From NCBI GenBank assembly GCA_001724265.1, contig MEDY01000235.1:1-46781 (forward strand): a stretch of 46,781 nucleotides of DNA, read 5' to 3'. This stretch comes from Rhizaria sp. SCN 62-66. Taxonomy: Eukaryota. The notes below the pieces were generated by a model. That model made no database searches. It had not been told where the DNA came from and worked only from the letters and a program-made list of their open reading frames with translations. The translations under genes were made by a program, and so were the position numbers. How positions within the stretch are numbered: the first letter of the stretch is position 1; the number at the start of each line of letters is the position of its first letter. Shown here in pieces: positions 1,015 to 46,250 of the stretch.

Positions 1015-2337
1015 TCAGACGCTCTTGCTGGACCACAAAACACAGCTCTGCTCGAGTCCCTGGTACGCGTACACTGGCACGTTGTACTTTTTGCGCACGC
1101 CCAACGGCACAAACCGCCCCCCCACAGCGTGCACAAACCTTGCAGCGCGCGTGGGCCCAGCTGTCCCCGACTTTCCTCCACTCTAGCCGTCCGCATGCGT
1201 TACTGCAGTTGTCGCTGCGGCCGCTTCAACCTCTGCGGTGGCCTGCTGCTGGAACGCGCGCGCGCAGCCCTTGGGCGCGGTGAGCGAGACGAGCATGTGC
1301 GGCATCACGCCGGTGCCGTAGACGTCGCCCGCGGTGACTTCCCAGCCAGACGGCACGTCGACGCTCACTGTCACGGTTGCGGTCGCAGTCGCGGCCGAGT
1401 CCGAGGCTTGCGCCGCTGAAGGGATGCTCGAGTTCACAGCAGTCGTCTTGGCCACAGACGCTGCGGCTGCGGCGGGGACACTGGTGCTGCTTTCACGCGA
1501 AATCCCGGCCTGCCAACTCTGGTTAGCTGCTGCAGCGCCAGCGCTCTTGTCGTCACTGTTGCGCAGAGATGCAGACGACTGAGCGCTGACCTTGCTGAGA
1601 AAGACGAGGAAGTCGTCAAAGGGAGCCCGCACCAGGGCGCGGATGCGGGCTTCGCAGTCTTCTGTCGCCAATGACAACGGTTGTGCGCTTTGACCGGGCA
1701 TCTGAGCGCAGGTCGCGGGTGGAGTGAAGGAGAAACCAAAGACGGAGTCGATGACGATGCTGGGAAACACCGTGTCAGCGGTGACGCAAGCGGCAGAAGC
1801 GGTGGGATCAGCCCAACCAACAACAGCAAGTGCGTTGGGAATAGAGACAGCGGTCGCAACGCCAATGTCGTTGCATTGGCGCAGCAGGGCCTAGTAGTGG
1901 CTACCGGGACGGGGCGCACGGGGCGCAGCAACAACAACCGAGTATCTATGAAGGTTACACAACGAAAAGAAGTAGATAAGTGAAGTTTGCATAGAATATC
2001 ACTACATAAGAGTATCGAAAATTCAATTTGGAGATAAAAGCTATTAGAAGTGACAATAAGCAGAGATACGAGGAAACAAAGAAGTGGTAGTTGCGTACCC
2101 TGCGTGTTTGAGATGGCGAGCTGCAACGAGCCCGTCACCACCGTTGTTGCCAGGTCCAGCCAAAACAATAACGCGAGGGAAAGAAGTGGTAGGATACTCT
2201 TTGTTGATAGCCTCTGCGCAGCTTAAACCTGCAAGTTCCATCAGCTGTTCTAACTTGAAGTTGTAGGGTCCCATGAGGTCTTCGTCCAGCGCAGCCGCTG
2301 CCGGTTGTTCCAGGTAAAACGACTCTGATGTCGACAT
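1015..2337 (-). CDS. NAXE: NAD(P)HX epimerase (YjeF-N / apoA-I binding protein); exons 2337-2099 and 1945-1015; two in-frame TAG (1893-1891, 1185-1183); ~389 aa
   Basis: Motifs [48 protein letters not shown] and C-terminal [12 protein letters not shown] all fall in one frame after removing a GT-AG intron (2098-1946) and reading through two TAGs. Ends at TGA 1017-1015. Confidence 0.9.
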
Positions 2338-18490: not shown

Positions 18491-21325
18491 ATGAGTGTCG
18501 CTTCACATGACAAAACACGCAGCTCCATGTCCAACGTGCATCTCGCGGTGGCGAACAGGCAACTGCCAACTCTGATTGCAAACGTGCAGATGTCGTCTGG
18601 CACGGTGACGCCGATGAACCTCGACCCGCTGGTGCGCGAGATGCTGCTCGAGTTGAGCGTGGCCGAAGCGGCTGACGCGGGCGACGCGAGCGCCGCAGGC
18701 GACGTACGGCCGCCGCGGCCGCTGGCGCTGTCGACGCTGTCCCAACAAGCGCAGCTTGTGATTGACTCACAGGGCGTCTCGGACGGCGTGCGTGAGGTCC
18801 GTGCGCGCGCCGTGAGCTTGATCTCGGACCTTCTGAATAAGAAGTATTCGGGCAAGTACACTGCCGTTGTCTTTGGTTCGACTGCGTGGGACATCGACAA
18901 CAACACCTCCGACGTGGACGTGTCGATTGTGCAGACGAGGAACTTGGCGCCGCTGAAGTTCGCTGACGCCAAGAGGGTCATCAACCAGTTCTGCCGCGAG
19001 ATCAAAGACTCGCTCCGGAACTCGCACGAGCTCTTCGTTTACAACGTGCTGTCGCACACACGCGTGCCCGTGTCGACGATGTACTACTACCACAACAACA
19101 CGCGCGTGCAGCTGCAGGTGAGCTCAACCACGGATCACGTGAACGTCAAACTGCACCTCATCTCCCGTCTTCTGCGCGACTACCCCGTGGCCGTGCAGCT
19201 TTTCAAGGCCATCAAGGTGTGGGCCAAAGCGCGCTGTCTCATCAACTCCCGCAAGCGCTTGCTCAACTCGTTTTCGCTCTTTCTGCTCGTAATCCAATAT
19301 CTCCAGCTGCGCGTTAAAAACCCGCTCGGCGTGATCCAGCCCGCGCCGTTCGCGTACGCGCACACGAACGCTGCCAGCAGCAGCGACATCCCCAAGTTCG
19401 AGCTCGTCGACCTCGCGAGTCCCGCTACTGAAGAAGCCGCTGCGGCCGCCGTGGCCAAGCTGCCGCACTATCTCATAGTCTGGGACTCTGCGGCAAACGC
19501 GATGCAACGCATCGAAAGCGGTTCGCCAGCCGTGCGCCGCGCCATCGCAGCCGTCACGAAGACTTCCAAGAGCTACAGCTTATTGCTTGCCGCTGACGCG
19601 AGGGTCGACAAGAGCGGTGGGAACTACGACGAGGCCCACGTCGACGACGTTGACGACGACGACGAGAACGAGTACGAGGATGAGTACGACGACGAGTGCG
19701 AAGATAAGTACAAGGACGAGAGCGAGAGTAAGGCAGAGGTTGATGACGGAGTTGCGCCCACACCCAGTCCACAGGCCGATGACAAGCTAGTAAGCTACAG
19801 CTCCCTCGTCCGCTCCTATGACAGTCTCGCTTCAGTGCCGTCGCCTGCAGCGTCACCGCCTGCCTCAGTTGCGGCGGCGTTGATGCCTGCTGCACAGAGC
19901 CCGAACTATACCAAGAGCAACTGCTACGGCCACTCCATTGCGCAAACCGTGCGCGAGCACCTTGAGAAAAACCGCGTTTTCTTCGGCCCCATCGTCGGCG
20001 GCGCCCGCGCCATCGTATCGCACTCGAACGGACACTTGTTCGACGCGCAACCTGCTGAATACAAGCTGGACATCCTCGACGCTCCTCGCCCCGCGCCCGA
20101 GTCGATCGCGGTCGCTCGCGCAATGGAGAGCAGTGAAACTGCGGCTCAGCTGGGCGATGACCAAGAGGATGATGGCAGCCTAGGGGCATTAGTTAAAGGG
20201 TTCTTTGCGTTTTACGCAACAGCCTTTGATCCCGCTGTGCACGCTGTTTCTATCCGACAAGGCCACCTTGTCTGGCGCCAGCCGCTGCTTGATCGGACTC
20301 TCGGCTACTCTCAAGCGTGCGTCCCTATCTACAGGGAGAACTCTCAAACCTGGACTCTGGAGGGGACAATGCGCAGTCAGTTCAAGGGTGTCGACTGGCG
20401 GAGCGCGGAGCTGGTTATTGAAGACCCCTTGTCGGCTGTTGACAGTAGCGCGCGCTCGCTTCACGCGCACCGCAGCAAGACCATCTGGACCGAGCTGCGG
20501 CGCGCGCACGCGCTGCTGTCCGGCTCCAGTGCCAGCTACGAGACAGTCGTTTGCGAGCCGCTCAGCAAATCACTCACGCGTCTGCACCAAGTCGTGCGCA
20601 AGTGCGCAGGCGCTGACGCGGTTTACGACGCGCACCACGACGACCACAAGCCTGGAGGCGACTCCACGCCTTATACTGCGACGTCAGCGCTGTATGAGCT
20701 GCAACTTTCGGGCTTTCTCCGTCATATGTGTGCATTTTCGGCGGCAATAGTGAAGAAGCAGCGCGAGGTAAAAGTGCCAGTCACACACCGAGACCTTGTC
20801 GCTTTGCGCGCGCAGGAGGACTTTAAGCGCCAGCAGCGCGAGCAGCGCCTCAACGCCCGGCGCATGTAGCGCGAACTGCTGCTCCAGCCACTCCTTCAAC
20901 AGCAGCGCCAAGAGCACGAAGGGCTGCAACAGGAGTATCTCTACTGGCAACAAGATATTCAAGAACAGCTTGAGCATGGGGCTTTTCCTTATCACCTGTA
21001 TCTTCAGCAGCAACAGTACCTCCACAAAAACTTCCTCCAGCAGCAGCTACAACTCATTAAGCAACAGCAGGAGCAGAAGAAACAGGAGAAGCTGCTGCTG
21101 CAGAAGAAAAACCAGCAGCAGTTTCAGCTCTGGCTGCCGAATAATCTGAATCAGCAACAACTGCAGCCGGTCAAGCCCACAGTTCCCAAGCAGCAGCTCT
21201 CGCAAAAGCAGCCTCCGCAACAGCTGCCCCCGCAACAGCCCCCACAGCAACAACAGCGGCAGCAGTGGAAGCCGTTCTTTCCGAAGAACTGGCAGCCGTT
21301 TTATCCCAAGCAGCATCAAAAGTAA
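18491..21325 (+). CDS. Non-canonical poly(A)/poly(U) polymerase family (Cid1/GLD-2/TUTase-like) paralog 1 with Q-rich tail; in-frame TAG at 20867-20869; ~944 aa
   Basis: VFGSTAW...SDVDVS nucleotidyltransferase motif, IKVWAKAR, LNSFSLFLLVIQYLQ, and PAP-associated LGALVKGFFAFYA...VSIRQG...IEDPL. The frame continues past TAG as RELLLQ... to TAA 21323-21325, collinear with paralog 2. ATG chosen by alignment with paralog 2. Confidence 0.8.
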
Positions 21326-22675
21326 CAACACGACCTACGGCAACAATAACAACAATATCTGTCTCAAGAGCAGTTGCAACTCACTCGCAACCGCAAATAC
21401 AGAAATTGCAGTGCCGAGCGATGCAGTGATGCAGTGAGCACTTGCGCAATATTTTTGCTGACATTCAGACGCATGAAGCAATTCTTACTTCTAATTTACG
21501 TAATCATTTGTCTAATACTTGCAGATATGTCACAATTATATTCATACGAACGTCACATGTTGACATTGTGCTTTCTTATAGCATGTACACCTGTACGTTT
21601 TTTCATTTTCACTGTGCTAGTCAACCGACTCAGTCTCAATACAGAACAAGGGCGTAATAAGAAATCATTGACATAGAAAGCATAGTACTGATATTCTATG
21701 TCTTCAAAGTTATTGTTTTCACATGTGATTGACGAAATTGCGCAGAAGACAACAAAACGTGGGAGTAACACCGAGTAAACTATAACAAGATTTAATGCGA
21801 TTACGTCGTGCTTCAGCAATCAAGTGTTGAACTATTGGTACTAGTTGAGCTAAAATCACGGTTTAATGAAAACATTGTAGTTTGCGCTTCGTAATATCAG
21901 CAGCGATGTAGAAGCATTTGGTACTCCTACCGCCGAGGACGAATTTCTACATATACTACTAATATAGTAGTAACAGTCATAATGCAGTCTGCGAATTTAT
22001 ACTGCGCTGTGATATCATGGTGGCTCCTGTGTCATCTTGCACGAGCCCTCTCGGTTCGGCGACCGTGATCACGGGTGACCGTGAAGCTGTGAACGCGTAC
22101 ACGCTTGAACATGGTGACTGTCCACAGCCGTCACGTCACTCAGTAGGTCAACCGCAAGGCGAGCAGTTGCGTCACTTTTGTACAAGCATGAATGTAGGAT
22201 TTTGATCGTCAGAGAGAATTTAGGTTGTTTTATTACTTTTGAATGACTTATCTTCATGTTAATTTTAATCTTTATTTTGTAGAGAGTCATTCTGTGATCC
22301 AGGGTTGGACCTACAATCCTGCATTTAGCTGTGAAGCTGGAACTGTGCTTTCCACCAATATTACATCTGCCTAATTCGACACCAAGGCGCAAGACCGTAG
22401 AGCCTGGCTCAATTCAAAGGTTTTCCACATAGACACCGCACGATGCATGCATTGGATTACGCTACCCTCGTGGATTTGATGCTTAGTGAGCTTCGAATCC
22501 ATGAGTGTCCACTCAGTGCCACCTGACTCATCATGATCACTCCTTGCTCACGACACTGTATTGCGATGAAAAGAAATTTTTACTTGCCTTACTCATTTTC
22601 CAATCCCATGTTGATACGCCTTTCTTTGGTTAGTTTTTTTCATCCGAGGCTGCGAGCTGCGCGCGTAATCATCCC

Positions 22676-25645
22676 ATGAGCGCCGCTTCGCACAATGGCC
22701 ACTTGTCCGCCAAGCAGCTTGCAATTGCCAACTCGAATCTGTTAACGATGATTGCAAACGTGCAGATCTCGTCTGGTACGATTACGCCGATTGATCTTGA
22801 TCCCCGGGTGCGTGACATGGTCCTAGAACTCAGCGTGGCAGACGCGGCTGAGTTGATGCCGCAGCCGTTATCGATGTCTGAGCTTTCTCGTCAGACGCAC
22901 ATCGTGATTGACTCGCAGGCTGTGTCAGACGATGTGCATCTGGGCCGCGCGCTTGCTGTGAAGCTAATCTCAGAGCAGCTACATCGGAAGTACAAGGGCG
23001 AGTACACAGCCATCGTCTTCGGCTCGACGGCCTGGGGCATCGACAACAACGGCTCCGATGTCGACGTGTCGATCGTGCGCACACAGGGCTTAGGGCCATT
23101 GGCGTATCCAGAGGCCAAGAAGGTCATCGGTAATTTTTGCCGCTCGATCAAAGACCGCCGGATTTTTGTCGAGAATGTGCTCACGCACACGCGCGTGCCT
23201 GTGTCGACGATGTACTACTACCACGGCGACACGCGCGTGCAGCTGCAGGTAAGCTCCAGCGAGGACCAAGTCAACGTCAAGACGCAGCTTATTCTGCGTC
23301 TCATGCGCGAGTACCCCTTCGCGGCCCCGCTCTTCAAGGCCATCAAGGTGTGGGCCAAGGCGCGCTCTCTCATCAACGCCCGCGAGCACTTGCTCAACTC
23401 ATTCTCACTCTTCCTGCTCGTGATTCAGTACCTCCAGCTGCGCGTCAAGAGCCCGCTCGGTATCGTTCAACCCGCTCCCTTTGCATACGCGCGCAAACAC
23501 AGCAGCGCCGGCAGCGCGCTCTCCGACGAGGAGGAGTTCGAGCTCGTCGACCTTGCGAGTCCCGCGTCGGACGAGGCCGCGGCCGCCGCCGTGGCCAAGC
23601 TGCCGCAGTACATCTTCAGCTCCGAGGCCGCAGCCGGCGCGATGCAGCGCTTCGTGAGCGGCTCGCCCGCTGTGTGCCGCGCCGTCAAGGCCGCGGTCAA
23701 GCTCGTCAGGAGCGGCCGCTCGCTTGCTGCTGCCGCGCAGGTCGCCGCGGGCAGCGACGCCCACGGCGACGCCCACGGCGACGCCGTCGTCGACGACGTC
23801 GAGGACGGGAACGAGGACGCGTACGAAGACGACGAGGACGATGATGAGGTCGCGGCTGAGCCCGAGACCGCGGACGCCGGCGACGTTGAGGACGAGGCAG
23901 AGGAAGAGGCCACCCCTGTGGACCCGGAAGACGAGGCCAAGGGTGCGATCCGCGGCGCCGCGCGTTTTACCGACGACGCCGATGTTGCTGTTGTAGCTAA
24001 GAACACGACCAACAACAAACACACCGCTGCGGAGCTGGACGCGACGTCATCGCTGCTTTCGGATGCAGCGGCATCGCTTCTCGCCGCGGAGGGTCTGCGT
24101 CCTGTGCAAAGCAGACGCGGTGGCAGCTCCATGGCGCAAACAGTGTGCGAGCACCTCGAGCGCCACCGCGTCTTCTTCGGCCCCGTCATCGGCGGCGCGC
24201 GCGCCATCGTTTCACACTCGAACGGGCACTTGTTTGACGCGCAGCCGGTCAGGCACAAGCTCGACGCCTTCAACGCTCCGCACCGCGCACCCGAGTCGGC
24301 CGCGGTCGCGCGCGCCACAGCAAACGACAGCTCTGCGACGGAGCAGCTCAGCAACCAAGAGGATGACGATAGCCTGGGCGCCCTGCTCAAGGGCTTCTTC
24401 GCGTTTTACGCGACCGCCTTTGACCCTGCTGTGCACGCCGTCTCGGTGCGCCAGGGCCACCTCGTCTGGCGCCAGCCGCTGCTCGACAACGCACACGGCT
24501 ACGCGCAGGTCCGCGTTCCTGTGCCCGATCACGGCGCCGTCGTTGAGACGATACCCTGCCGTTTCAAGGGCGTCGACTGTCGCCGCGCGGAGCTGCTCAT
24601 CGAGGACCCCCTTTGCGCGACGGATAACAGCGCGCGCTCGCTTCACGCGCACCGCTGCGCAGCCATCTGGACCGAGCTGCGGCGTGCGCACGCGCTGCTG
24701 TCGGGCTCCGGCGCCAGCTACGAGACAGTCGTCTGCGAGCCACTTAGCGAGTCGCTCACGCGGCTGGTTCAGGTTGTGCGGAGGTCTGCGGGCGCGGATC
24801 AAGCCGCACAGCATGGCGGCAGCAAGCTTGAGCATCATGGCCACTAGGATCCAGAGGACGGCGCTCCGCCTGGAGGAGCGTCGTTGCCGAACGACCAACG
24901 ACAGCTGGTGGGCTTTTTCCGGCATGCGCATGCGCTTGTAACTGCCCAGGTGAAGCTGCAGCGCGATGTCACCGTGCCCGACACGCACCAGGACCTGGTG
25001 AAGTTGCGCACAGACGAAGCATCGCGCAAGCGGGAAAAGCGCGAACAACGTGAACTTCTCAAACAACAGCGGCAGCAAAAGAAGCAGCTTGAGCAAGAGC
25101 ACCTCAATCAGCAGCGCTTGCAACAGCAGATTGAGCAAGGGGATCTTCGTCAACAGCAAGACACCGATCACCAACTCCAATTGCAGAGTCAGCAGCTGCT
25201 TCAGGTGCAGCAACGACAAAGGCAACACCAGCAACAGCATCAAGAACGTAATCAGCCGAAACAGCAACAGCAGCAACAACCCAAGCAGCAGCAACCGAAG
25301 AAGCAGCAGCCGAACCAACAGCAGCGAAACCAGCAGCAACAACAACCGAAGCAGCCGCCGCAGCAACAGCAGCAGCAGCAACAAGAGCAGCATAAAAGTC
25401 AACCAAAGAAGCAGCAACACCAGCCGCACCAGCAGCATTTGCCGAAGAAACAACAGCAACAACATCAGCAGCAGCAACAGCAGCAACATCAACATCAACA
25501 GCAGCAACATCAGACACATGCTCGGGAGCAGCCACAGCCGAAGCCGCAGAAGCCTCCACGCCGCGTGATCGAGACTAAAGCCGTGAGCCGTGAGCTCATG
25601 CAGCAGAAGGCTAGTGCGCAAGAGCAGCATTATTTGGATCTATAA
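22676..25645 (+). CDS. Non-canonical poly(A)/poly(U) polymerase family paralog 2 with poly-Q tail; in-frame TAG at 24845-24847; ~989 aa
   Basis: Same motifs as paralog 1. Track ORFs 22676-24847 and 24884-25645 share a frame and are separated only by TAG. The downstream part (QLVGFFRH...QRDVTVPDTHQDLVKLR) aligns with uninterrupted paralog 1 sequence (QLSGFLRH...QREVKVPVTHRDLVALR). Ends at TAA. Confidence 0.82.
25040..25560 (+). repeat. CAG/CAA-rich poly-glutamine coding tract
   Basis: Dense CAG/CAA codons encoding the Q-rich tail of paralog 2. Confidence 0.85.
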
Positions 25646-27204: not shown

Positions 27205-30200
27205 TTAATACAACTTCATCTCATGTGGGTTAAACGCAAGATCGACATCAATGCCTTGCCTGCGCTGCACGCCGCTGTACCGCGCGCACCACGGGCAGCA
27301 CGGCAGCTCGGCCACCTCCTTCGTGAAACGCTCCGGCTCCGTCACGGCCATGGCGATAACGGCGTCGACAGTGGTTTTCTTGGCCTCGGCCAAACGTACC
27401 ACGCGCTCCTCCTCGGCGGCCTGCGCACGCTCGACGCGGGCCACGTACAGCGCGTCCGCGCGCGCAAGAGCGACACGACCAACATGCGTAGACTGCAGCA
27501 GCGCCTCGACGCCGTGATGCTCATGCGTCGCGAACAGGCCGGCCAGTCCCAGCTCGCGCGCGGACTGCAGCGCGGCGGCGTCGACCGCGGCGTCGTCCTC
27601 GTCGTACCAGTCGTCGCCGCTGTCGTTCTCGCTGTCGCTGCCGCTGCTCGAGCTGCCCGGATCGCCATCGCCGTCGTTGTCTTCCGTGCCGCTCGCCACC
27701 GCAGACGCCACCGCGAACGGGGACGCCAACGCAGCAGCGGATGCCGACGCAGACGCAAAGGCAGACGCAGCGCCAGAGCCGGCGTCGCCGGACGTCTTCC
27801 CGCCTGAGGTACCATCGGCACTTACGGCAGCGTGGTCGCTGTGATCCTCGGCGTCCTCGTCGTCGCCCTCTGGGATCGCGTGCGCGACGGCGTTGCTGCC
27901 GCCCGCGGTGCGGTATACGCTCTGCTTGCGCGCCAGCGCCAGCGGGCCCGCGCCTGCGCCTGCGCCGGCCTCGCCCGCGGCGGTCGCGGGGGACGCGGCG
28001 GCGACGCCGGAGAGGTCGACGTGCGGGAGGTCCGAGTGCTCCGCGTGCAGCGGCAGCAGCCCGCGCACGACCATGGAGCGCACGTTACTCTGGTGCACCC
28101 CCGCGACCTCGGCGGCGTCCACGCGGCGGCGCGGCGACAGCGGCGAGAGCGGTGAGAGCACGCCTTCCGCGCCACCAGCGCCGATGCCCGCGTTCACGCT
28201 CAGCGCCAGGCCCAGCGGCGGCGCGCCGCTCGCACTGAGAGTGGCGTTCGCGCCGGGCGTGCCGCTGGACGCGGCGAAAAACGCGCTGCGGCCGGCGCCT
28301 GCAGCGGCGCCGGGGACGGCAGAGTCCGCGCCCGTCGCACGCGGCGGCAGCAGCGAGACGGAGGAGAGCGTGAGCGCGCGATGGAAAGATGGCGCGGACG
28401 CAGACGGCACAAGACCGCTGCCGCCACCAGACACACGCAGGCCCTTGGCCGTGGCAGTGGAGCCTGTCGCCGCATCAACGCCGTCGCCGAGTGTCACAGC
28501 TGCGGTGGCAGCGGCATCGCCGTAGGTTTCGGCGTCAGCATCAGCGTCTGCGATCAGGTCGCCGTCACCGTGCCCACCGGCCGTGAAGGGCGCAATGCTG
28601 ATCGTGTTGTGGCGCTGCATCAGGTCCCTGACCGCGCCGCGGTCGCGGCTGCGCAGACGCGACTTGCGCGACGAGCCGTGCTGCTCCTGGCGGCGCTTTT
28701 GGTGCATCGCGGAGAACTCGGCCATGTGCAGGTCGACGACGCGGCCGAGGTCCTTAAGCTCGTTCGCCAAGTCGTCAAGCATGTTGCTCTTGCCGGTCAC
28801 GCCCGCGGGCACGCCGCCCGCCTCCGCGGGTGAGGCTCCCGTTGCGGCCACACAGGCAGGATCGGTAGACGGCAGTGCGGGCGTAGCGTCAGGGGGAGAG
28901 CCGGGCGAGGTCGCGGGCGCTGGTGAGGCCGCGCCTGCAGAACTCGCGGCGATGGTGCCAGCGGGCGCGACGGGCACAGCGGTGACCGCCGCCGTAGCGG
29001 GTGCGTAGCCGAGGCGTGCGGCGGCGTTGTCAAGGCGCGCGATGGCGTCCGCAGTGGAAACAAAGCCGCCGCGCTCGTCGTCGCCGGAGTAGAGCGCGGC
29101 CGCCAGCAGCGCACGCTTGTGCTGCGCCTTGCGGGTACGTTCCTTGTGCAGCAGCGTGAGCACAAAGACAGTGTACGCGATAAGAATCACGACGATTACC
29201 CCAAAGCCGGTAAAGAACATCGCATTCCACTGGTTGATCTCGGCGTACGAGTCGTCCGTGCCCTCTTGATGCGCGCCCTGGTTAGCGAACGCAAGCACCG
29301 TCAGCGCGGACCAGGAGCCGAGCGTAAAGGTGATGATCTTGACCGCGTCCACGACGGGCTCCGAAGACGGCATGAATTCCTGCGACACAGTCTGTGAGCG
29401 CTGCGGCGAGAGCAGCGCCTGGTGCGGCGCGCTCGAGTGCGCGGGCACCGACGGCGGCACCGACAGGTTGAGGTTCAGCGCGGAGCCCGCGGAAGGGTAG
29501 TACATCAGGCCCCCGCCCGCGACGGCCGGTGACGACGGGGCCGCGGGCGTCGGCGGCGCGGGCAGCGGGCCCGTGCACGGCGACAGACGCCCGCCTGTCC
29601 CGCTGCCGGCAGTGGCGGTGGGAGCAAAAGCGTTCGCGGTCGTAGTGGCGCCAGCGGGCGTGCGGGCGGGCGCGCGCGGCGGCAGGCCCTGTCCGCGCGC
29701 GCTAAGCGGCAGCGCGGCGTCGGGGCCGGCGTGCACGGCGGAGCCCGGGGCCGGGATGGGCTTGGGGCTGGCGAGGCTGATCGAGGTCGCGCCCGTCGAC
29801 GGCGAGAGGGGGAAGTACGGCCGCTGCGCGCTGCCGGGCGTGCGCGCCGTCGCAGTCGCGGAAACGTTCGGAGCGGGAGCGCGCGGCAGGGGCGCCATCT
29901 CGACATCACCGGCGCGCTTGGCCGGGCCGCGGCGCTGCGTCTGCTGCGGCTGCATCTGCTGCTGCTGTTGCTGCTGCTGGAGCTGCGCGTACGTGAGGAT
30001 CGCCGGCCGCTGCTGCTGCTGCGACGGCGCAGAACGGCGGCGGCCCGGGCCGGAGACAGCGGTCGATGAACCGGGCCCACCGGGCGCGACGAAGTTCGCG
30101 TCCGACTGCGCAGCGCCGTCGTGTTTGCGGCGCGTGAGCAGACGCGGCGAGAGCACCCAGACGAGCGTGAGAATGCACAGCGCGAGCGAGAAAACGAGGA

Positions 30201-33200
30201 TCCACGCCGCGCCGCCGTGCGCGTTGCCGCGGAGCAGCGCGACGTAGCCCGCGACGCAAAGCCCGCGCACTGCCGAGACCATCATGGCGTACTTGTGGTG
30301 CGTCGTCAGGCCGCTGATCTGCGGAGCGTTGAGGTGCCACAGCCGCCGCGAGGTCTCCACCCACAGCGAGAAGGCCGCCTCGGACGACAGCGGCGCCGCC
30401 GCGGCGGAGACCAGCTTGCCACCCGCCGCGCTGACCGCGCGGCCGTTGCTGCTGAGGGCGGCGTCCGGGGAGCTGGCGCCATCGGAGAGTGAATCGCCCG
30501 TAAGCGCCTGGAGGTAGGACCGCAGCAGGGCCTTGCGGCGCGCGATCTGGACTTCGATGCGTAGCAGTGCGCCGGCGAGCGCAATGTTGGGGTGCAGCAG
30601 CGTGGTGATGATGAGGAAGTACACAGCCGAGGCAAGCATGACAACCGAGAGCGCGCGGTATGCCTCGCTGCCCGCAGGCCAGCATACTGCCGAGAACTGC
30701 ACGTTGGCGCCGAGCCAGGTGCACGAGATGGGATGCAGCAGGTGCCAGAGCACGAGCATGGGCAGCGTGTCGCAGATAAAGCCAGCGACGCGGCGAACCA
30801 AGGGCGAGACGATGTCGACGCGCAGGTGGCCGTGGCCGAAGAGCAGCGAGCCCGTGAGCGACATGAACAGGTACTGCTGCGCCAGGATAGGCCGCTGGCG
30901 CCGGTGCCGCAGCACCAGCCACGCGCGCACATCGAGCAGCAGCTGCAGCGCCAGCGTAGCAAGGAGCAGTGCGACGAGCCCGAGCGAAACCCAAGCCATG
31001 ACAGGCGCGTTGGTCAGCGAGTCGACGTTGCCGACCGCGTCGCGCGTGACGCCGTAGCTGTCACCGTCGGGCGCGTACGTCAGGAACACGGCGTTGTGCA
31101 GCGCGCGCGCCCACGTGGGCGGCAGCGAGCCGCGCAACGTGCCGTGCGTGCGGTTCGAGTCATCTGAGTAGAACGAGAAGGTCGCCGTGGCCCACAGCAG
31201 CAGCTCGTAGCATAGGCAGAGCACGACCCACGCGCCGGGCCCCGTGGCGGACCCGGGCCACGCGGAGCAGCGCGAGGGCCGCACGAGGTTGCCGTGCTCA
31301 TCCACATCGCGCACGTCCTGTTTCTCGGGGATCTCAAGCCCCTGAGCCGCGGCCTCGAACCGCGCGTCTGCGACCCGCAGCTGCCGCGTCGAGTAGCAGC
31401 ATCGCCAGCCCCATCGCCACGCCGTGGCAGCAAATAGCGCCTCGTCGCGGCCCTCTCCGCCGCCGCCCGCGGCGCCGGGGTGCGCGGAGGCCGAGGAGCC
31501 CGGCAGCGCAAGCGGCACGCCCGCGGCGCGCGCGGCAGCCGCCAGTGTGTCGACGTCCTTGCCCGTCCCGACCACGCCCAGCGGCAGCATCGGCAGCGCT
31601 GAGTACGAGGTTTCGCGGCCCGCGCCGGGCACCGCGCTCACCGCGCCCGCGCCCACGGCCACGGCCACGGGGCCCGCGCCCGCGGAGCCGGCGCCCCGCG
31701 AGGAGCCCGCGGCCACGGCGGCCGCGGCCGCGGCGGCGATAGGGTCCGTGTAGACGCTCTGCGGGGCCGCGCTCGCAATGGCGGCGGCGGCAGCAGCCGA
31801 GTTGGCCGCGTTGGCGTCTGCCGCGCTCGTGCTAGCCGCGTGTTGATGATGGTGGCCGAGGTAGGGCGGTGTGGGCTGCCGCGACGCTGCACCCGAGTTA
31901 GAGCCCGCGCCGACCCCAGCCGCGGCGGAGCCAGCGGCGCTGCCGGCGCTGGCCGAGCTGCCGTAGCTGCGCCGCTTGGGGCCGAGCCCGCCAGCGCCAG
32001 CACCGGAGCCACCAGGGCCGTTCACAGCGCCGCCAGCGACGGAGACGGCGTCGGCCGAGATCGCATTGGCCGCAGCGCTGTTGCCGGCGCCGGGGACCGC
32101 CGCGGCAAACGCAAGGTTCTCGACGGCAATGTCGTATGTCGTCGCGCGGTACGACTGGCCGTAGGTCGGGATGGCGAAGTCAAGCCGCCCCTGCACACCT
32201 GGCCCTGCGCCGATGCCGCCGCCGCCGCCGTGGGGCGCTGTGGAGTAAGACAGCGAGCGCGACTGCGGGATCGGGCCCGCGCCGGCGCCGGGCGCGTGCG
32301 CAGGCGCCGGCGCCGCGAGGAACGACGACTGCGGCGCACTGGCGCCGGCGCCGGCGCCCGTCGCGGCGGCGAAGGCACTCGCAGTGCCGGTGCCCGCAGG
32401 GTAGGGCAGCGCGAAGTGCTGCTGGCGCAGATGCGCGACGCCGTCACCGGAAAAGCCCAGCGCGGCCGACGCCGCCGCGGCCTCGATGTCTGCGCGCGAC
32501 CGCAGGCCCACCGCGCCCCCTCCGGCAGTAGCGCCCGCAACGGGGTTGTAGCTGGCGTTCGGGCCTAGCTGGTCGGCGAGCTTGACGCGCGCGGCGGCCG
32601 GGAGCGCAGCCGCAGAGCCGCCGGTGACGAGCGCGTCCGTATACGACGGTTGCCTGCCGCCGTTGGCTCCCGTCGCAGCGCCCGCCATGGAGGAGGCCGA
32701 GACCGCGGGGCTGTTGGCCGCGCTGGCCGAGGCGGCGGCGGGCGGCACAAGAGCGAAAGCCGCCATGAGCGACAGCTGCGGCTGCTGCGGCAGCAGCGCG
32801 CCGTGCCGCGGCGACTCGTCGTGCACCGCGCCACCGCCGGCTCCGCGCGAGAGCGCGGCCGCGGCCGCGGCGGCGGCGGCGGAGCCCGGCGGGAGGCTGG
32901 AGCTGGAGCCGGCGCGCGTGCCCGGCGCGGTGCCGCCGTTGCGCGCGGCCTTGGCGGCGAGCACCGCAGCCGCGTACGCCTCCTGCTCCTCCAGCGCCAG
33001 CGTGCGGTTCAGCCCCGCGCGCGGCGCCGCGGGCCCGCGCAAGCGCGAGCCGGACACGAGTGAGCCGCCGCCCGAGAGGCCCACGCCGCTGAGGGCCGGG
33101 GACAGCGCCGCCCTGCCGGGGCCCGCGACGCCGCCCACGGCGCTGCTGTTGCTGCCGCCGGCGCCGGTCGTCGCGGGCGCGATTGTGATGGTCAGCGCGC

Positions 33201-36200
33201 CCACGCCCGGGCCCGCGCCCGTCGCGCCGCCAGAGCCCGCGCCGGCCGTAAGCGCGTCGCCGGTGCCGCTAGCAGCGCCGGAAACGGTGCTGATGGCGCC
33301 GGCGTTGCGGCGCTGGCGGCGGAGCGCGGCGGGCCCGTGCTTACGCGTGTAGCGCATGGCGGTGATGCAGGCGGCGGCCATGACGAGCGCGATAACGACA
33401 ACGTAGACGCCGATGGACGTCTGCGCGCGGACCCAGGACACGGCGGTTGGGTCGTGCAGGATCCCGTAGACGGCCGCAATGGGGTAGCCCACGAGCACGA
33501 GCACGGCCGGGACGGCGCAGACGAGCAGGTGTGCGATGTTGACGCGGTGCTTGGGCGCGCGCACGGGCTGCAGCATGCCGCGCACGACCTCCTGAATGCG
33601 GATCGCATAGTGCGTCTCGGGGATGAAGAAGCGCATGGCGTAGGCGGGCAACAGCACGAGCACGAGCAGCAGCATCACCAGCGGCACCAGCACCACGCTC
33701 GACAGCGCGAACAACACGTCGTCCTGCGTCTCCAGCGACACGCAGCCACAGATGTCGCCGCGCGGACCGCGCCGGCTCGCGCTGCCCTTGCGCCCCGCCC
33801 CGGTCACGCCGTGCTTGCCTACGGTGTGGCTGTGGCTAGCCCGATGCCGCCCGTGGCCCGCGCCCACGCCGGCGCTGTGGTCGAGGCCGTCGTGCCGCGA
33901 GTGGCGCTCTCTCGCTCCAGCGCCACCGTCCGCGGAATCGGCGCCAGTGCCAGCGCCAGAGCTGGGGAACGCAGCAGCGCCCGCAGCGGGTCTGTTGCTG
34001 GCGTGACCCGCGCTCGCCTCCTCATCGTCGTCGTCGTCGTTGTTGTTGGCGGTCTGCTGTCGCAGCAGCCGCGCGCGGCCGCCAAACCCGATCACGGAGG
34101 CCACGTTGATCGATGCCGCGCGCTCGCGGGCCGCTGCGGCCGCCACGGAGGGTTTGTGCTGCAGCGCGGGCGCGGCGGCCGCGTCGGGCTGCGTGGTGTT
34201 GCCGGCTGCGTCCTTGCCCGCGAAGCCGGCGCCGGAGCCCGCGCGCGCGCTGCGGGTGGAGCCGGGCGTTCGCGGAGTGGCCGGGGGGGCCGCGCTGGGG
34301 CTGCGCGGGGCAGAGTCGCCCGCGGAGGAGGCCGAGCCCACGCGCACAGACAGCGCCGCCGCACCGGCTCCGGCATCACGCATGCCAGCGGCACCGCCAA
34401 CGGCGGCAGCTGAGGCAGTGCCGGGCGCGGTGTCGAGCGCGATCGCGCCGTCGCCGTTGATGGCAAGGTCCTCGATGTTGCTGGGGCTGTTAAGCGCGTT
34501 GAGGTTGCTGTTGCTCGTGTCGTGGTCGAGGCCGCCGCCGCCGAGGTCCAGGTCATTGACGGCCTGCACCGAGTCCACGTGTGCCAGGTTGTGCGCGAAG
34601 TCGATCGCGTCCAGGAACGACTGTGCGCGCCGCGGAATGCGCCCCGCGCGCGCCGCGCCGTGAGCCTCGTCGTCGCCCTCGTCGCCGTCACCGTGGCCGT
34701 GGCAGTCGGGGTCGTCGCCAGCAGCAGAAATCTTGGCAGAGACTGCGCCAGTCACCACGTCAGAGGCTCCGTGGCTGTCCTTGCGGTGCAGGCTTCTCCC
34801 CTTACCGCTGCTGCTGCCTTTGCCCTTGTCTTTACCAGCGCCGTCGCCGTCGCTCTCGGTGTCGCTGTCAATGTCGTGCGAGCGGCCCTCGGCGCCGTCC
34901 GCCGTGGCGTCGACGTTGCTGCTGATGCGCGCGGCTGCGGCGGCCTCGTACAGCTTCATGCGCGGAGGCAGCGCCGAGTCCGCGCTGGCGCTCACGCTCG
35001 CGGACGCCGTCGCAGCGTGGCCGTGAGCGACGTGGCCTTGGCCGTGGTGGGGCGACAAAGTCACCTACGGCGGCACTGCGGGCCCGTGCACGCGACCGCC
35101 GACACCGGCGCCGGCACCGCGAGTCCCATGTGTCCCATGCGTGCCGTGCGCGCCCCTGTGGCCGTGCGAGTCTGCGACGCTGCTGCCCGAGCTGTCGCGC
35201 AGCAGGTTAGCGACTTCGAAAGCCAGCGCGTCGGCCTCGACGCCGTCCTGCAGCTCCACGTGCCCGTGCGCCACACGCAACCCGCGCGCGCCATGCGCGC
35301 CGTGGTGCCCGTGGTGGCCGTGGGCTGCGGCGGGAATGGCCGCACTGCTGGTGCCGCTGTTGCGCCGGATGAGCGCCGCGGGCCCCATCAGCGGGCTCTG
35401 GCCGTGGCCGTGGGCGGCGGGGGAGGCGGCGAGCGCGGCCGAGTGCGCAGCAACAGAGCTGCCGCCCACCGCGAAGGCGTTGTTGCCCGCGGCGGCGGCG
35501 GCGGATGAGGTCGAGGAGGAGACCGTTGCGGAGCTGGAGTTGCTGACGTCATCGCTGTCGGCGATGGGCGACGGCGAGGGGCCCAGCCCACCCGCAACGG
35601 GGCTGCCGCTGCCGCTCACGCTCACGCCCCCGCCCGCAACGCCGGCGACGCCCGACGCGGCCGGGGACACGTTGCCTATGTTATTGCCGTTGCCGTTGCC
35701 GTTGATGTCATCGTCGCTGAGCGCTGCGGCGTCGTCGTCCTCGTCGTCGTCGGTGTAGCCGTGGGGCGCCATGGAGCGCGGCGCGGGCAGCCCGGGCGTA
35801 ATGCCGATGGCGGCGGTCAGCGGCACGCGCGCCAGGTAGTGGCACAAGTGCGGCACGTGCCGGCCCGTGAGCGCCGACACCTCGAAGTACGGCAAGTCGA
35901 ACGAGCGCGCGAACTGGACGGCCTCAGCGACCGAGACAATGCGCGCGGCCTGGGGCACGTCCGTCTTGGTGGCGACGAGCGTGATGGGCGTGGGCGCAAA
36001 GACGGGGTGGCCGCGGATCGAGCTCACCAGCGCGTCGGCGGCCGCGAAGGACTTTCGCGACGTCACATCGAACACGACGACGACGCCGGCCGCGGCGTGC
36101 ATCCAGGTCGCGCGCAGGCCCAGCGCGTCAGTAGCGCCAGAACAGTCCCAGAGCGAGAGCTTGACGACGAAGCCGTCGATCATGGCCTGCCAGGACCCGA

Positions 36201-36482
36201 AGGCGGTGCCAAAGGTGTGGACGTAGTCGGGGTCGAAGGCCTTGTTCTCGATCGCGTGGATGAGCTGCGTCTTGCCGGACCGCGTGGAGCCTAGCAGGCA
36301 GTATTTAAACTGCGCAAAATAAAACAGCGAGTGAAACGAAATATGTGAGTTTGGGTGCGCTGGATAACGAAAGAGAGAATGTAGATAGCGATATGTGTGG
36401 TGAATGAGGAGAGACGAACCTTGAAGTCGACGAGCTGCTGCTGCACCTCGCCGACACTGCCGACGCTCGCGTCGACCTGCAT
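27205..36482 (-). CDS. Giant protein: N-terminal Ras/Rab-like small GTPase domain, low-complexity regions and multi-pass membrane segments; exons 36482-36420 and 36309-27205; in-frame TAG at 35067-35065; ~3055 aa
   Basis: Intron 36419-36310 joins MQVDASVGSVGEVQQQLVDFK to FKYCLLGSTRSGKT (G1), followed by HTFG, LSLWDCSG, VVVFDVT, LVATKTD and YFEVSA. ORF 35065-36183 abuts ORF 27205-35064 in frame across one TAG, and the latter has no ATG at its start. About ten hydrophobic helices follow. Ends at TAA. Confidence 0.75.
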
Positions 36483-37919
36483 TGCGCGCTGGGGAAAAGT
36501 AAAAGCGCTAAGCTAGGCCGGCTAGGGCCACGGGAGGGGTGGGGGGAAAGGGGGAAAAGCTAGCGGAACCCGGAAAGCGTCTGCAAAGTGGACTTTTGAA
36601 GGCTGAGAGACCGAGCAACGGTAAAGCGTTAGGAACGCGGGAGGGTGCGTTGAGGTTGTACCTCTAAAAGCTGTTCTAGAGATGTAAGACGTTAATATGT
36701 GTGTGGTGTGATGGTGGTGTGAGTGGATGATTAGGGATCACGATGCACAGAGGCCGGGAAAGTGTGCCGAAGATCAGTCCAGAACCAAGGTTGTTGCTGC
36801 AATCTTGCACCTTGAGTATCGAAGCCATCATATATTTTCTGTGCGCAAAAAAAAGCTATTTCATGTAGTATTGCTTGTAATCTGGCAGAAAATGCCGCTT
36901 AAACTCTACTTGACAGTCGAATGAATGTATTATCCCATTCCAATCATCGTTCATTCTGGCCCCCACAACGGAACCACAGCAGCGACGCAGCGACGAAGCG
37001 ACCAGTCAAAAATCGCATATCAACGAAAAACTCGTTATATGTGCCTGTTCGCATGAGGGAATCAAACAATAGTGTGTGTGTATAAAATACGTTAGAAAGA
37101 CATCTTGTTGGTACCACCTCGAATCTTCTGTCACCGTAAACCCGCTCATCTAAATCTGCAGCTATGTGCATCTTGCGCACGTGATGGTCGCAAGCTCGAT
37201 GAAGAAAGACCGGGAGAGCGTGCCCTGAGAGACTGCGGTCTACGCGCAGCCCCTAAGAGTAGAACTGGTCTTAGCAAGCGCACAAGCACAGAAGAGTTTG
37301 TCTTTCGAAATCGCACGCCACGTCAAACATACGCAGTTAGCTGAGTAACATGAGAGCGTGACATGAGCAAGTGAGTCGTGAGGTATCGTTGTGCTGCTGT
37401 AGCACCAGAAGCGAATAAATCAATTAGATTGGACATCAAATTACTCGATGTTATAAAAGTAAATACGATTAAACTAGTGTAAATACGTGACTGGGAATGT
37501 CATACTTGTGACTCGTTGTTAACACGGGATAAAATATGAAAGAACAGACAATTAAAGACAGACAACTATAAAATAGGAAGCAAACAAAAAGAGAATCTAA
37601 TCTAGACAGAAAAGAATCAAGATGCAGAAAAACATTTTCTCGCAACACAACATTTGAGAAGCGCTACAGTTCAGTTTAGCGCCCTTCAGTCCTTCGCACA
37701 GCGCACAGCAGGAGCAGATGTGCGCGCTCCACATTGCCTTGCTCAAGCTTAGCTCAGCTTAGCATATCTTAGTTTAGTCGATTGCAGCAAAGCTTCGTTT
37801 CCCTCAACCTAGCTTCGGTTAGCTCAGCTGCAATAAGTTGAGATGAGATTGAGATTCAGTTGGGTTAGAGTTCAACAAATGTAGCTTTTCAGTTCAAGTT
37901 GATTGAAAAGGCCTTACTC

Positions 37920-40281: not shown

Positions 40282-43200
40282 TTAATTCTCCGTGACCGCA
40301 ATGCAGATGCTGCGCCAGTCCTCGTCAGACATGCCTGCCGGGCGAAAGTACCCCAGGCGGGCCATCTCCTTATCGGTTGGAAACCGCGCCGCGCCCGCCG
40401 CGCGCCGCTGCCGTGAGCCGGTCGCGGCATCGTCGCCGCCAGCGCGCGCGGAGGCACGGCCGCTGCCGCTGCCATTATCCTTGCTTTTGCTGCTGCTGCT
40501 GCTCTTGCGCTTGATGTTTGTCCCGCCGTCGTCGTCGTTGTTGTCGGAGCTCGAGTCAATGAGATCGACAACGTCGACAGCAGCACCAGATACGGTGCGC
40601 TTCACACCACCCTTGCTATTGCTGCTGTTGCTCATGTTGGCGTTGCTATTGCTATTGCTGTTGCTCCAGCTGGCGCTACTGCCGCTTTTGCTGCTGTTGC
40701 TCTTCTGAGCGCCACTCTTAGCGCTCGCGCGCGGCTTGACGTCGGGCTCGGAGTCCGATGACACGAGGTCCATCTCGATCACTGTACCCGGCGGGCACTG
40801 CAGGCGCGACTGCGAGAGTTGCGACTGGGGCTGGGATTGCGACTGCGACAGTGCTTGGGACTGCAGGCTAGAGGGCGCGGAAGACTGGCTCGCACTACTA
40901 GGAACGTCAGAGATCTTACTCTTGCTGCTGCTGCCGCTGATGTTGCTGTTGTTGTTGTTGTTGTTGTTGTTGTGACTGCGCTCACTCTAAGTCTTGGTGC
41001 TGCTGCTCTTGGCGCTCTTGCTCGAGCTCGAACTGCTCTTGCTACTGCTGCTCTTGCCCTTGCCCGCACTGCTGCTGCTGCTGTTGTAGATGACAGCGTT
41101 CTCGTTGCTCTTGGCCGCGGCGATCTTGCGACCCGCGCCGCCCAGCACCGAGCTCGCAGTGACCGCGGCGTCGCCGTCCGACTCGGCGTCCATATCCGCG
41201 TCGGCGTCGGCGTCGGCGTCGACCATCGCCACGGGCTTCGCGGCAGGGGCCTTCGCAGACACGGCAGCGGCGGTGCTCGCGGTCGCCATCTTGGCGCTGC
41301 TGCTCTTGGCCTTGGGCGCACTGCTGCTCTAGCCGCTGCTGCTGCTGCACTTTGTGGCGACGCGCGCGCTCTTGTGTTCGCTGCCGTCGTCCTAGTTGTC
41401 GCTGCTGTCACTTCCGTTGCTCTAGACCTCGGCGTCATCATCGCTGTTGCTGCCGCTCGAGAGCGCGAGCGCAGACGCAGACGCAGCGGCGTCGGAGGCG
41501 CCGGAGAGGCGGGCGCGCTTGGTTACCTGGCCACCAGCAGCCGCCCGGGCAGTCGAAGACGCACCGGCAGCAACAGCGGCAGCGGAAGAGTTGCGGTCGC
41601 TGCTCTTGCTCATGCTGCTCTTAGAGCTGCTCTTAGCGCTGCTCTTGACGCTGCTGCTCTTGCTCTTGCTCTTGCTCTCAGTCTTCGCATCGGCCTTGGC
41701 GTCAGCCTCAGCGTCAGCATCCTCAGCAGCGTCGTCGCCGTCGTCATCGCTTTCGCTGTCACTGCTGCTACTGCTGTCGCCCTTGTCCTTGTCAGCCTTT
41801 GCAGCATCAGCGTCGCCGTCAACCTTAGCCTCGCCGTCAGTGTCAGCGTCAGTGTTATCATCGTCGACGCCAGCAGCGGCCGCAGCGGCCTCGGCCTCAG
41901 CGTCGGCGTCCGCCTTGCGCTTGTCGGCCGCGATCTGGGCCAGGAACGCTGGCAGCTTGCTCTTGGGCCCGGCGATCTTAGGCGGCGGCAACGCCACCAC
42001 GGGAGCCTCCTCCTCGGCCTTCTTGCGGCGGCTCTTGCGCGCCTTCTTCTTGCCGTCGCCACCGTCCTCACCAGCAGCGTCGTTGTCGCCGGCGCCGCCG
42101 TCCGCAGCGGCGGCGTCGTAACCGTCGGTCATGCCGGCAGCTGCACCGGCGCTGTTGCTGTTGCTATTAGAGCTGGAGCCGCCGACGAGCGAGAACATCT
42201 CGACCATGAGCTCGCCCTCTCCCTGCAGCTGCAGCGGGTCACCGTCCGCGTCGTCATCGCCGTCACCCGCCTCGGCGTCGGCTGCGGCAGCAGCGTCGGC
42301 GTCAGCGCCCGCCTTGGCAGCAGCAGCCGCCGCGGCGGCAGCGGCGCCGCGCTCCTTCTTGACGGCGCGCGGGCGCTCGACGATGGCGGTGGCGCGCTTG
42401 TTGATCTCTTCCACGGGCGACACGATCTCCTTGCCCGAGACCTCGCAGGAGAAAACAAACCGCACCGGTTCCCACACCGCCAGCGCGGTCGCTGCCGCGG
42501 GCTTCGCCGCCGGGGACGCGCGCAGGGCCGTAAATGGGCGCACGCCGCTGCCGGGCGTGCCGGTGCGGGACCCAGAGCCGGAGCCGGAGCCGGAGCTTGA
42601 GTCAGAGCTGGCGGAGGCGGCGGAGGCGGCCGCCACGACGGCGGCGTCGGGTAGCGGGCGCTCTGCAGCAGCAGCATCATCAGCAGTCTTCTCTGTCGCA
42701 TCAGTGGCGGACTTAGCGGCGGGCGTCTCGACGGCAATCACGTCGTCGTTGCTGTCGTCGTCATCGTCAATATCATCGCTGTAGTTCTTCTTGGCCTTAC
42801 TCGAGCCGCCCGCAAAAGCGGCGGAGCCCGTGCCAAACATGCCGAGGCGCGGCGCCGCAGAGGCGGCGACGGCTACGCGCATGCTCGACCGCACGGGCCC
42901 CGCGCTGGCCGCGGGGGCACCGGCCGAGGCGGCGAGGCACTTAAGGTTGCCCGCGCTCTTGACCGGGATGTTGGCGAAGTTGGACGTGTGCGTGAAACGC
43001 AACATGGGGTCGGGCGTGGTGAGCACGGTCGGGTGGTGCGACCAGTTGGCCAGGTCATCCTCGGCGGGCTTCCCGCGCTGCCCCCACCGCAGCGTCACGC
43101 GGCCCGAGCCCGAGCTCGCAGCGGCGCCGTCACCGGCAGCGGCGGCGGCAGCGGCGGCGGCAGCGGCGCTCTTGGCGGCGGCGCAGTCAGCGTCGAAGGT

Positions 43201-46200: not shown

Positions 46201-46250
46201 AGCAAACCCTCTTCGCAGGCCTCACACAGAGGGCCCTTCGGCGGAGGCAT
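40282..46250 (-). CDS. RAD54: RAD54-family SNF2 DNA translocase; exons 46250-45045 and 44883-40282; four in-frame TAG (41424, 41394, 41331, 40989); ~1935 aa
   Basis: Spliced LRPHQRDGVQFL (intron 45044-44884), ILADDMGLGKTLQ, CDEAHRLKN, LSGTPMQN, RRTNTLLSAHLPPK, LLSSKAGGCGLNLVGANRLVLFDPDWNPAVDKQAAARVWRDGQKK. Track ORFs 41422-44874, 40987-41289 and 40282-40782 share one frame, interrupted only by TAGs. Ends at TAA 40284-40282. Confidence 0.88.
40946..40973. repeat. (GTT)n microsatellite, encoding poly-Asn in the RAD54 frame
   Basis: Run of gtt repeats. It reads AAC in the extended RAD54 frame downstream of the fourth TAG. Confidence 0.75.

Follow-up and report, generated by a model that had tools for sequence, protein, structure and literature searches.

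A Rab-like GTPase and a conserved membrane module in one probable 3,055-residue gene across an in-frame TAG that appears to be a sense codon

Introduction

Phyllopharyngean ciliates reportedly read UAG as a sense codon and keep UAA and UGA as stops. Codes of this kind are also described for the rhizarian exLh, where UAG specifies leucine, and for Iotanema spirale, where it specifies glutamine (PMC5304391). The present study concerns contig MEDY01000235.1 (assembly GCA_001724265.1, recorded as Rhizaria sp. SCN 62-66), which was analysed over its whole length of 46,781 nucleotides (nt) and is termed the window hereafter. On its minus strand, between 36482 and 27205, the coding sequence of a Rab-like GTPase domain and that of a large membrane protein share a reading frame that contains a single TAG. 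We read the locus as one gene of 3,055 residues, in which the TAG is translated through a cause at the level of the code, that is, UAG reassignment, and we give this reading a probability of about 0.75. The gene looks split in two because UAG appears to be read as an amino acid; standard-code gene calling has therefore produced a split gene, and the GTPase is missing from the public protein record, P0001.

Gene structure and coding continuity

The minus-strand frame that begins at 36309 is open to the TAA at 27205-27207, the stop of the entire gene, except for one TAG at 35065..35067, which is the only TAG of the GTPase/membrane frame and is taken here as a residue. Exon 2 begins at 36309 (FKYCLLGSTRSGKT) with the beta-1 strand and the P-loop of a small GTPase. 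Exon 1 (36420..36482, minus strand) would consist of an ATG at 36482-36480 and 20 further codons (MQVDASVGSVGEVQQQLVDFK), with a donor (AAG, then GTTCGT) directly after it. The putative intron between them (36310..36419, minus strand, 110 nt) is bounded by GT and AG (GTTCGT...GCGCAG) and is pyrimidine-rich ahead of the acceptor. We infer the splicing of 36419-36310 from the sequence: the intron is needed because the P-loop strand would otherwise be without a start codon, the first ATG of the open reading frame (ORF) called with translation table 11 (35065..36183) coming after the G1 box. The 21 residues of exon 1 and the 3,034 that follow make up the 3,055.

The coding character of the frame does not change at the TAG. 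The G+C content at third codon positions (GC3) along the frame from 36309 to 27205 is 0.72-0.95 in 31 of 31 blocks of 100 codons, and is 0.86 in the block that holds the TAG. The GTPase domain is followed by a low-complexity linker (35068..35838, minus strand, GC3 0.86-0.89), which is composed of Asp, Gly, Ser and Ala and then becomes His/Gly-rich up to the TAG. This His/Gly-rich text runs across the TAG, and it takes only 35 further codons of it to reach the next ATG (MKLY). That ATG belongs to the linker after the TAG (33706..35064, minus strand, residues 1-453 of the 2,619-codon ORF, GC3 0.80-0.95), and it is there, 36 codons past the TAG, that P0001 starts, with 2,584 residues and no GTPase. 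At the far end of the gene the GC content goes down to 0.33 over the 60 codons after the TAA.

The initial annotation had described a GTPase/membrane fusion of about 3055 residues, visible only when the TAG is translated, and a His/Gly-rich tail that continues over the TAG into a 2619-residue frame; frame, count and tail are all recovered here. Its term "TAG readthrough" is right in that the TAG is translated, and is probably wrong in so far as it implies an event specific to this gene, for TAG behaves as sense in five genes of the window. We also considered, and rejected, an intron that would excise the TAG. The only close GT..AG pair (GTAGGT...CCAAG, 32 nt) has a length that three does not divide, and no joint is seen at that place in the contig of the RNA library described below.

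A collinear relative in a single reading frame

The membrane frame holds hydrophobic clusters at ORF residues 454-569, 1278-1638 and 1954-1972. A HMMER search of 1.84 billion representative proteins with cluster 2 as the query (456 residues) returned 22 proteins at E<=1e-3, the window's own included. The best match, P0004 (2,714 residues), aligns with the read-through protein P0026 in six collinear BLASTP blocks, whose order is the same in both: two blocks in the GTPase (P0026/P0004 residues 1-128/59-188 and 123-170/247-294), clusters 1, 2 and 3, and a CCxWC tail. Cluster 2 gives the best block, with 32% identity over 484 columns (2e-59), and the two GTPases are 38% identical. P0004 is encoded by an uninterrupted ORF of 2,714 codons at 5312-13462 of L001, a contig of about 50% GC from another eukaryote, and no synteny was found between L001 and the window.

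The collinear ORF of P0004 is independent evidence, because of which we take the GTPase and the membrane part to be one polypeptide. The same order in one ORF, together with the failure of TAG to act as a stop elsewhere in the window, argues that the fusion is real, and the GTPase very probably forms a single gene with the membrane frame of 2,619 codons, with the TAG translated. P0004 resembles the window protein in its Rab-like GTPase with WDC[SA]GA, its three membrane clusters and its C-terminal CCxWC; it differs in that its ORF follows the standard code without interruption, its G4 box is NKID rather than TKTD, and its linkers are shorter and less Ala/Gly-rich. Positions 1-21200 of L001 also carry EML-like WD40, Spo11/Top6A and ABCG-type genes, and TAG seems to be an ordinary stop in this contig.

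TAG as a sense codon in the window

Among the larger frames, four table-11 ORFs end in TAG, namely those of the GTPase, two nucleotidyltransferase paralogues and an SNF2 helicase. Past the TAG these frames are free of TAA and TGA for 2,619 codons (GTPase), 151 and 265 codons (paralogues 1 and 2) and 379 codons (SNF2), whereas the 8 ORFs that end in TAA or TGA meet the next TAA or TGA after 0-60 codons. Genuine gene ends in the window show a further stop soon afterwards and mostly a lower GC content. The final stops of the 11 genes examined, a small sample, are TAA in 7 cases, TGA in 4 and TAG in 0.

In two genes homologous sequence follows the TAG. The TAG of nucleotidyltransferase paralogue 1 is at 20867..20869 (plus strand), 151 codons before a TAA, and that of paralogue 2 at 24845..24847 (plus strand), 265 codons before a TAA; 68 residues past the TAG of paralogue 2 align with residues that precede the TAG in paralogue 1 (BLASTP, 314 columns, 62% identity). 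A fifth gene, which is YjeF_N / NAD(P)HX-epimerase-like (1015-1998, minus strand; Pfam 2.1e-08), has its TAG at 1183..1185 (minus strand) within a lineage-specific insertion of about 33 residues, upstream of a conserved GGRFVP..KKY tail. The tail forms a collinear third stretch in the comparison with 1jzt (yeast) and 2dg2 (mouse), in register and weak when taken alone (i-Evalue 11-29). The Ser-rich tail of the SNF2 helicase contains four TAGs (40987..41424, minus strand; first bases 41424, 41394, 41331 and 40989), with 379 codons from the first of them to the TAA and a GC3 of 0.82.

TAG is rare in this window. Of the 13 listed, about 9 are in sequence that is probably coding; the coding codons number roughly 11,500. 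No shared downstream context of the programmed-readthrough kind was found among the 13. One TAG aligns with a His of the nucleotidyltransferase paralogue, and neither the paralogue alignments nor the contexts single out one inserted residue. TAG is read here as a sense codon because the four TAG-ended ORFs run on, no gene end uses TAG, and homologous sequence follows the TAG in two genes. Genome-wide UAG reassignment, rather than readthrough specific to a gene, is most likely, and the nuclear code appears to be one in which UAG is an amino acid and UAA and UGA are the stops.

A further TAG is seen at 17195-17193 (minus strand), 43 codons into the frame upstream of an AAA+bromodomain (ATAD2/Yta7-like) ORF and after an ATG (MKAKGL...); if this ATG is the start, the TAG would be one more in-frame TAG in a Ser-rich stretch.

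Coverage of the locus by other data sets

DNA contigs from data sets X2 and X3 cover 34353-35309 with 0 differences. A contig from X5, a poly(A) metatranscriptome of another study, covers 35033-35413 in a strain about 1% diverged from the window, without a joint, and no difference is listed at the TAG. The TAG is not an assembly slip of the record. Differences between the strains number 22 inside the frame, 13 of them synonymous and 14 at third positions; the one at 36450, in exon 1, changes GGC to GGT and is synonymous. DNA of the window was found in bioreactor, wastewater and activated-sludge runs, and metagenomes from bioreactors and wastewater are the sole source of what is known of this uncultured eukaryote; the runs with small shares (X6-X14) were not used to assign a habitat.

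The diverged strain dates from 2025 and is seen in contigs of X4 and X5 (positions 27944, 36847). Some of these contigs have a 2-base deletion at 27944, which would shift the frame near the 3' end; its source may be a repeat, or else a different organism that passes the 90% likeness cut-off.

The GTPase domain

The GTPase domain spans 35839..36306 (minus strand) and matches Pfam Ras at 1.1e-27 over residues 2-157 of exon 2, which cover 154 of the 162 profile positions. The boxes stand in the order of the Ras superfamily, in which G1 is GxxxxGK[ST], G3 DxxG, G4 [NT]KxD and G5 SA[KL]; here they read GSTRSGKT, WDCSGA, TKTD and SAL. The best solved matches are Rab4B, Rab4A and Rab14 (E 3e-21 to 2e-19), with Rab2 also among the best. 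The catalytic Gln of WDTAGQ is missing, since LWDCSGA has Ala in its place, as does the WDCAGA of P0004. A C-terminal Cys prenylation motif (CC, CXC or CAAX) is absent at both end points that were checked, ...NPHEMKLY and the table-11 end ...HGPAVPP. By its sequence the domain belongs to the Ras superfamily and is Rab-like, but the Gln and the prenylation motif, both of them features of Rabs proper, are missing.

RabTitan is a Rab-like group said to have been named by Elias et al. in 2012 and to comprise very large proteins. The gene is a candidate member of this named group.

The membrane module and the C-terminal tail

Membrane cluster 1 (33358..33705, minus strand) has three hydrophobic segments (ORF residues 454-472, 514-532 and 551-569) and aligns with residues 1019-1208 of P0004 at 28% identity. 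It also matches residues 1053-1138 of P0009, another relative, upstream of the core of that protein (E 0.002). An Ala/Gly/Ser-rich linker of about 635 residues follows (31453..33357, minus strand), in which Ala, Gly, Ser and Pro together account for 0.55-0.72 and GC3 is 0.79-0.94. Cluster 2 (30085..31452, minus strand, ORF residues 1205-1660) is the conserved module, with 21 representative relatives at E<=1e-3. Cluster 3 (29149..29403, minus strand) comprises FMPSS...KIITFTLGSWSALT and a transmembrane (TM) segment at ORF residues 1954-1972, and aligns with residues 2026-2093 of P0004 at 38% identity. The C-terminal CCPWC...DLAF motif (27232..27300, minus strand) aligns with P0004 residues 2662-2684, and the same motif ends P0003 and P0005.

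The core of cluster 2 (30553-31020, minus strand) contains FMSLTGSLLFGHG, the D in ICDTL and a C...CW loop. Among 22 aligned family members A191, G201, H207 and D228 are invariant and F196, S198, Y205, G206, L238, C244, C257, W258 and Y279 nearly so, with C244, C257 and W258 present in at least 90% of the rows. The core signature can be written A...FF.SF.G.I.YGHG, D.LFL, Cys, a variable loop, CW.G.H and FY.PLS.M..PML.E. Because its residues are part of this sharply conserved signature, the C..CW loop is a sequence hallmark of the putative family.

The module is predicted to be polytopic, with about 10 helices in three hydrophobic clusters. The charge distribution suggests that the RHRRQR stretch and the GHG motif are cytosolic and that the Cys-Cys-Trp loop is on the other side. 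An AlphaFold2 model of cluster 2 has a predicted template modelling score (pTM) of 0.70 and a predicted local distance difference test score of 75-94 in the core; the pTM is 0.77 for the relative P0011. Neither model has a Foldseek match in the PDB at E<=1e-3. The best Z of the VIA wide fold search is 7.0 for the window model (ICMT, 102 aligned, root-mean-square deviation (rmsd) 5.0) and 8.0 for the P0011 model (Flycatcher1, 133 aligned, rmsd 5.8), both at the noise level for helical proteins. The membrane blocks have no Pfam match even at E up to 10, no SNARE family of Pfam matches the whole 2,619-residue frame or its blocks, and the PDB sequences searched with the family profile gave nothing below E 0.11. 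In a protein atlas the core falls among eukaryotic clusters without names, in which ciliates, oomycetes and Zoopagomycota are the most frequent phyla. Of the named clusters a TRP-type channel family comes nearest, at 0.86; only 25% of its members have PF06011, and the lead is weak.

These results bear out every sequence feature that the initial annotation had noted, including a GTPase without a prenylation motif, atypical G boxes with a G3 that lacks the Gln and a TKTD as G4, and about three hydrophobic helices followed by a later cluster with the C..CW loop, of which Cys, Cys and Trp turn out to be invariant or nearly so. It had also named no characterised family with this architecture. The Pfam, PDB sequence and fold comparisons, among them the AlphaFold and Foldseek comparison of the TM block that it had suggested, show no curated family for the membrane part.

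Architectures among the relatives

A scan of the 21 relatives found Pfam Ras in 4 (P0004, P0009, P0010 and P0023), of which 3 also have SNARE/synaptobrevin and 1 has C2 (P0023). P0009, P0010 and P0023 share the core signature and an N-terminal Ras-superfamily domain with the window protein, and P0009 also lacks the Gln of G3 and has TKSD as its G4 box. In contrast to the window protein, in which no SNARE is detectable, each of these three carries, ahead of the module, a SNARE motif that has an anchor of its own, and the CCxWC tail is missing from all of them. P0003 (1,659 residues) consists of the membrane core and the tail without a GTPase, and may be a fragment or a shorter form.

A word-indexed homologue search returned only the window's own protein, a result that is weak on absence since HMMER found relatives; an equivalent search with the GTPase region against proteins of 1,668-5,310 residues returned none and is likewise weak on absence. 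In the open-access literature we found no description of a GTPase joined to this module or of a Ras-SNARE-polytopic fusion, nor any earlier account of GTPase, SNARE and anchor in one polypeptide, the arrangement of P0009, P0010 and P0023. The statement of the initial annotation that it knew of no characterised family with this architecture holds for curated families; the architecture is not unique, as P0004 has it in one ORF and others combine Ras, SNARE and the core.

Possible function

We propose that the membrane module, to which the GTPase is tied by long disordered linkers, would replace a lipid anchor and hold the GTPase permanently on one compartment. The nucleotide state of the GTPase would there serve to recruit factors of trafficking or fusion, or to regulate them. 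Since the Gln is missing in the whole subfamily, the switch probably hydrolyses slowly or is locked, and would be regulated otherwise. A role of the family in vesicle targeting or fusion is suggested tentatively, because in sister architectures a SNARE motif is inserted after the GTPase and ahead of the module.

Alternative explanations

TAG might instead be ambiguous, a stop that is also weakly decoded through programmed or leaky readthrough or in a code in transition, such that the locus would yield a soluble GTPase of 436 residues and a rarer membrane-tethered form of 3,055. This would suit a codon that is rare, that always sits in disordered stretches tolerating either outcome, and that here separates precisely the GTPase from the membrane part, a position at which two isoforms would be meaningful; ambiguous stop/sense codes are reported for ciliates. 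We nevertheless regard it as improbable, given that 0 of the 11 genes with examined ends finish in TAG, that no common readthrough context such as CAR-YYA follows the TAGs, and that the conserved YjeF_N-like tail and the paralogue 2 block beyond their TAGs imply functional long forms there. Much less probable still is a pair of standard-code genes, a 436-residue GTPase that ends at the TAG and a 2,584-residue membrane protein that starts at MKLY. P0001 is on record in precisely this form, and P0003 shows that a relative without a GTPase may exist; yet there is no intergenic space, only 35 codons in the same frame with a GC3 of 0.86 and continuing His/Gly-rich text, where all real gene ends of this window show a quick stop and mostly lower GC. 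Two genes would moreover require the same coincidence at the four other TAGs of the window, and P0004 holds both parts collinear in a single ORF. A lone stop in a 9-kb frame also resembles a fresh nonsense mutation, and the locus could be a dying gene (a pseudogene) in this population, but this is scarcely credible: a strain about 1% diverged retains the TAG, the differences that lie past the TAG favour synonymous third positions (13/22 synonymous), GC3 is intact over 2,619 codons, and four other genes have the same pattern.

With regard to function, the module could be a receptor or an ion channel that is gated by its own GTPase, as the initial annotation had supposed. Its polytopic nature, an invariant His, an invariant Asp and the Cys-Cys-Trp loop, which probably lies outside the cytosol, would fit this idea; the TRP-type atlas cluster (0.86, PF06011 on 25% of members) is a weak lead in the same direction, and for the P0011 model VIA ranks a mechanosensitive channel first, with a Z of 8.0 that is noise level for helical proteins. 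On the other hand, neither PF06011 nor any channel family of Pfam matches at E up to 10, Foldseek found no match for either model at E<=1e-3, and the relatives carry SNARE, synaptobrevin and C2, which are parts of fusion machinery and not of receptors. A channel or receptor is therefore doubtful; no evidence in support of the supposition came to light, and the SNARE-bearing relatives suggest trafficking.

Several points weigh against our account of one gene with a sense TAG and a role in trafficking. The code is deduced from one 46.8-kb window, five genes and about 9 TAGs, all of which lie in low-complexity, variable or lineage-specific stretches, so that no conserved column indicates the residue; a tRNA gene was looked for in the 46.8-kb window and none was found. 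X2 and X3 give identical pieces and look like one data set, and X2 shares its study with the possible source of the record. The RNA evidence is one 381-nt contig that reaches 32 nt past the TAG, from a library that may contain DNA; one of the three differences of this contig lacks a location, and no RNA contig lies over the intron (35899-36572 uncovered). The two-gene model is the one on public record, as P0001 begins after the TAG, and P0003 lacks the GTPase, so a form without it may exist. The three segments of cluster 1 do not readily fit one topology with a cytosolic GTPase and the positively charged loops. The best fold matches (Z 7.0 and 8.0) are at noise level and offer no structural foothold for the proposed function.

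Implications

We put forward, as a speculative combination of these results, an unrecognised GC-rich, intron-bearing wastewater lineage with a UAG-sense code, together with an undescribed and widely scattered family of eukaryotic proteins that unite a Rab/Rho-like switch, in many cases a SNARE motif as well, and the membrane module, and that would act as a one-compartment machine of identity GTPase, fusogen and anchor. If this were true, the lineage would represent one of only a handful of decoupled UAG reassignments outside ciliates. If TAG is sense, every standard-code gene call in the organism is wrong wherever TAG occurs, and the organism would add one more to the very few nuclear codes that give UAG and UAA different meanings. 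The proteins would further indicate that a large conserved membrane module can take the place of a lipid as the anchor of a small GTPase. The recurrence of the same module with SNARE motifs would offer a testable entry into an uncharacterised protist trafficking machinery that the usual model organisms lack.

Genomic context

The window is eukaryotic, with zf-MYND/TPR, AAA+bromodomain, SNF2, PQ-loop, Cid1-type nucleotidyltransferase and SNARE-like genes on both strands. Its coding stretches are GC-rich, and its spacers have about 50% GC or lower. The nucleotidyltransferases are tandem Cid1/TUTase-type paralogues at 18404-21325 and 22505-25645 (both plus strand), with 62% identity over 314 columns, each of which has one in-frame TAG and then a long Gln-rich tail ending in TAA. 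An ORF of 472 residues at 24212-25630 (minus strand) is antisense to the tail of paralogue 2 and is probably not a gene. The SNF2/Rad54-like helicase gene (40282-44883, minus strand), with its Ser-rich C-terminal tail, is cut 380 codons short by table 11. The only atlas clusters near its SNF2 domain are generic helicase clusters of eukaryotes. Just upstream of this gene, an ORF of 423 residues at 44979-46250 (minus strand), for which Pfam gave no match, may be a gene of its own or else an upstream exon.

Comparison with known systems

No description of a UAG-reassigned eukaryote from activated sludge was found in the open-access literature. The window resembles exLh and Iotanema spirale in that only TAG occurs in frame and genuine ends are only TAA or TGA (PMC5304391). 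TAG is very rare in the window, whereas exLh had 384 in-frame TAG in 71 genes (PMC5304391). The organism of the window is GC-rich (coding GC3 about 0.8-0.95) and intron-bearing.

The likeness to the Rab family extends to the P-loop, the switch regions, [N/T]KxD and SA[L/K], all in register, with E values of 3e-21 to 2e-18 against solved Rabs. The domain differs from that family in being without the Cys motif, in having WDCSGA and not WDTAGQ, and in its covalent link to a membrane protein longer than 2,600 residues. A membrane anchor encoded in the protein in place of a lipid is also found in Miro, with a C-terminal TM helix, and in SR-beta, with an N-terminal one (PMC13393502). In contrast to Miro and SR-beta, which have a single TM helix and known partners, the protein here would be anchored by a conserved module with about 10 helices, which is also found apart from a GTPase.

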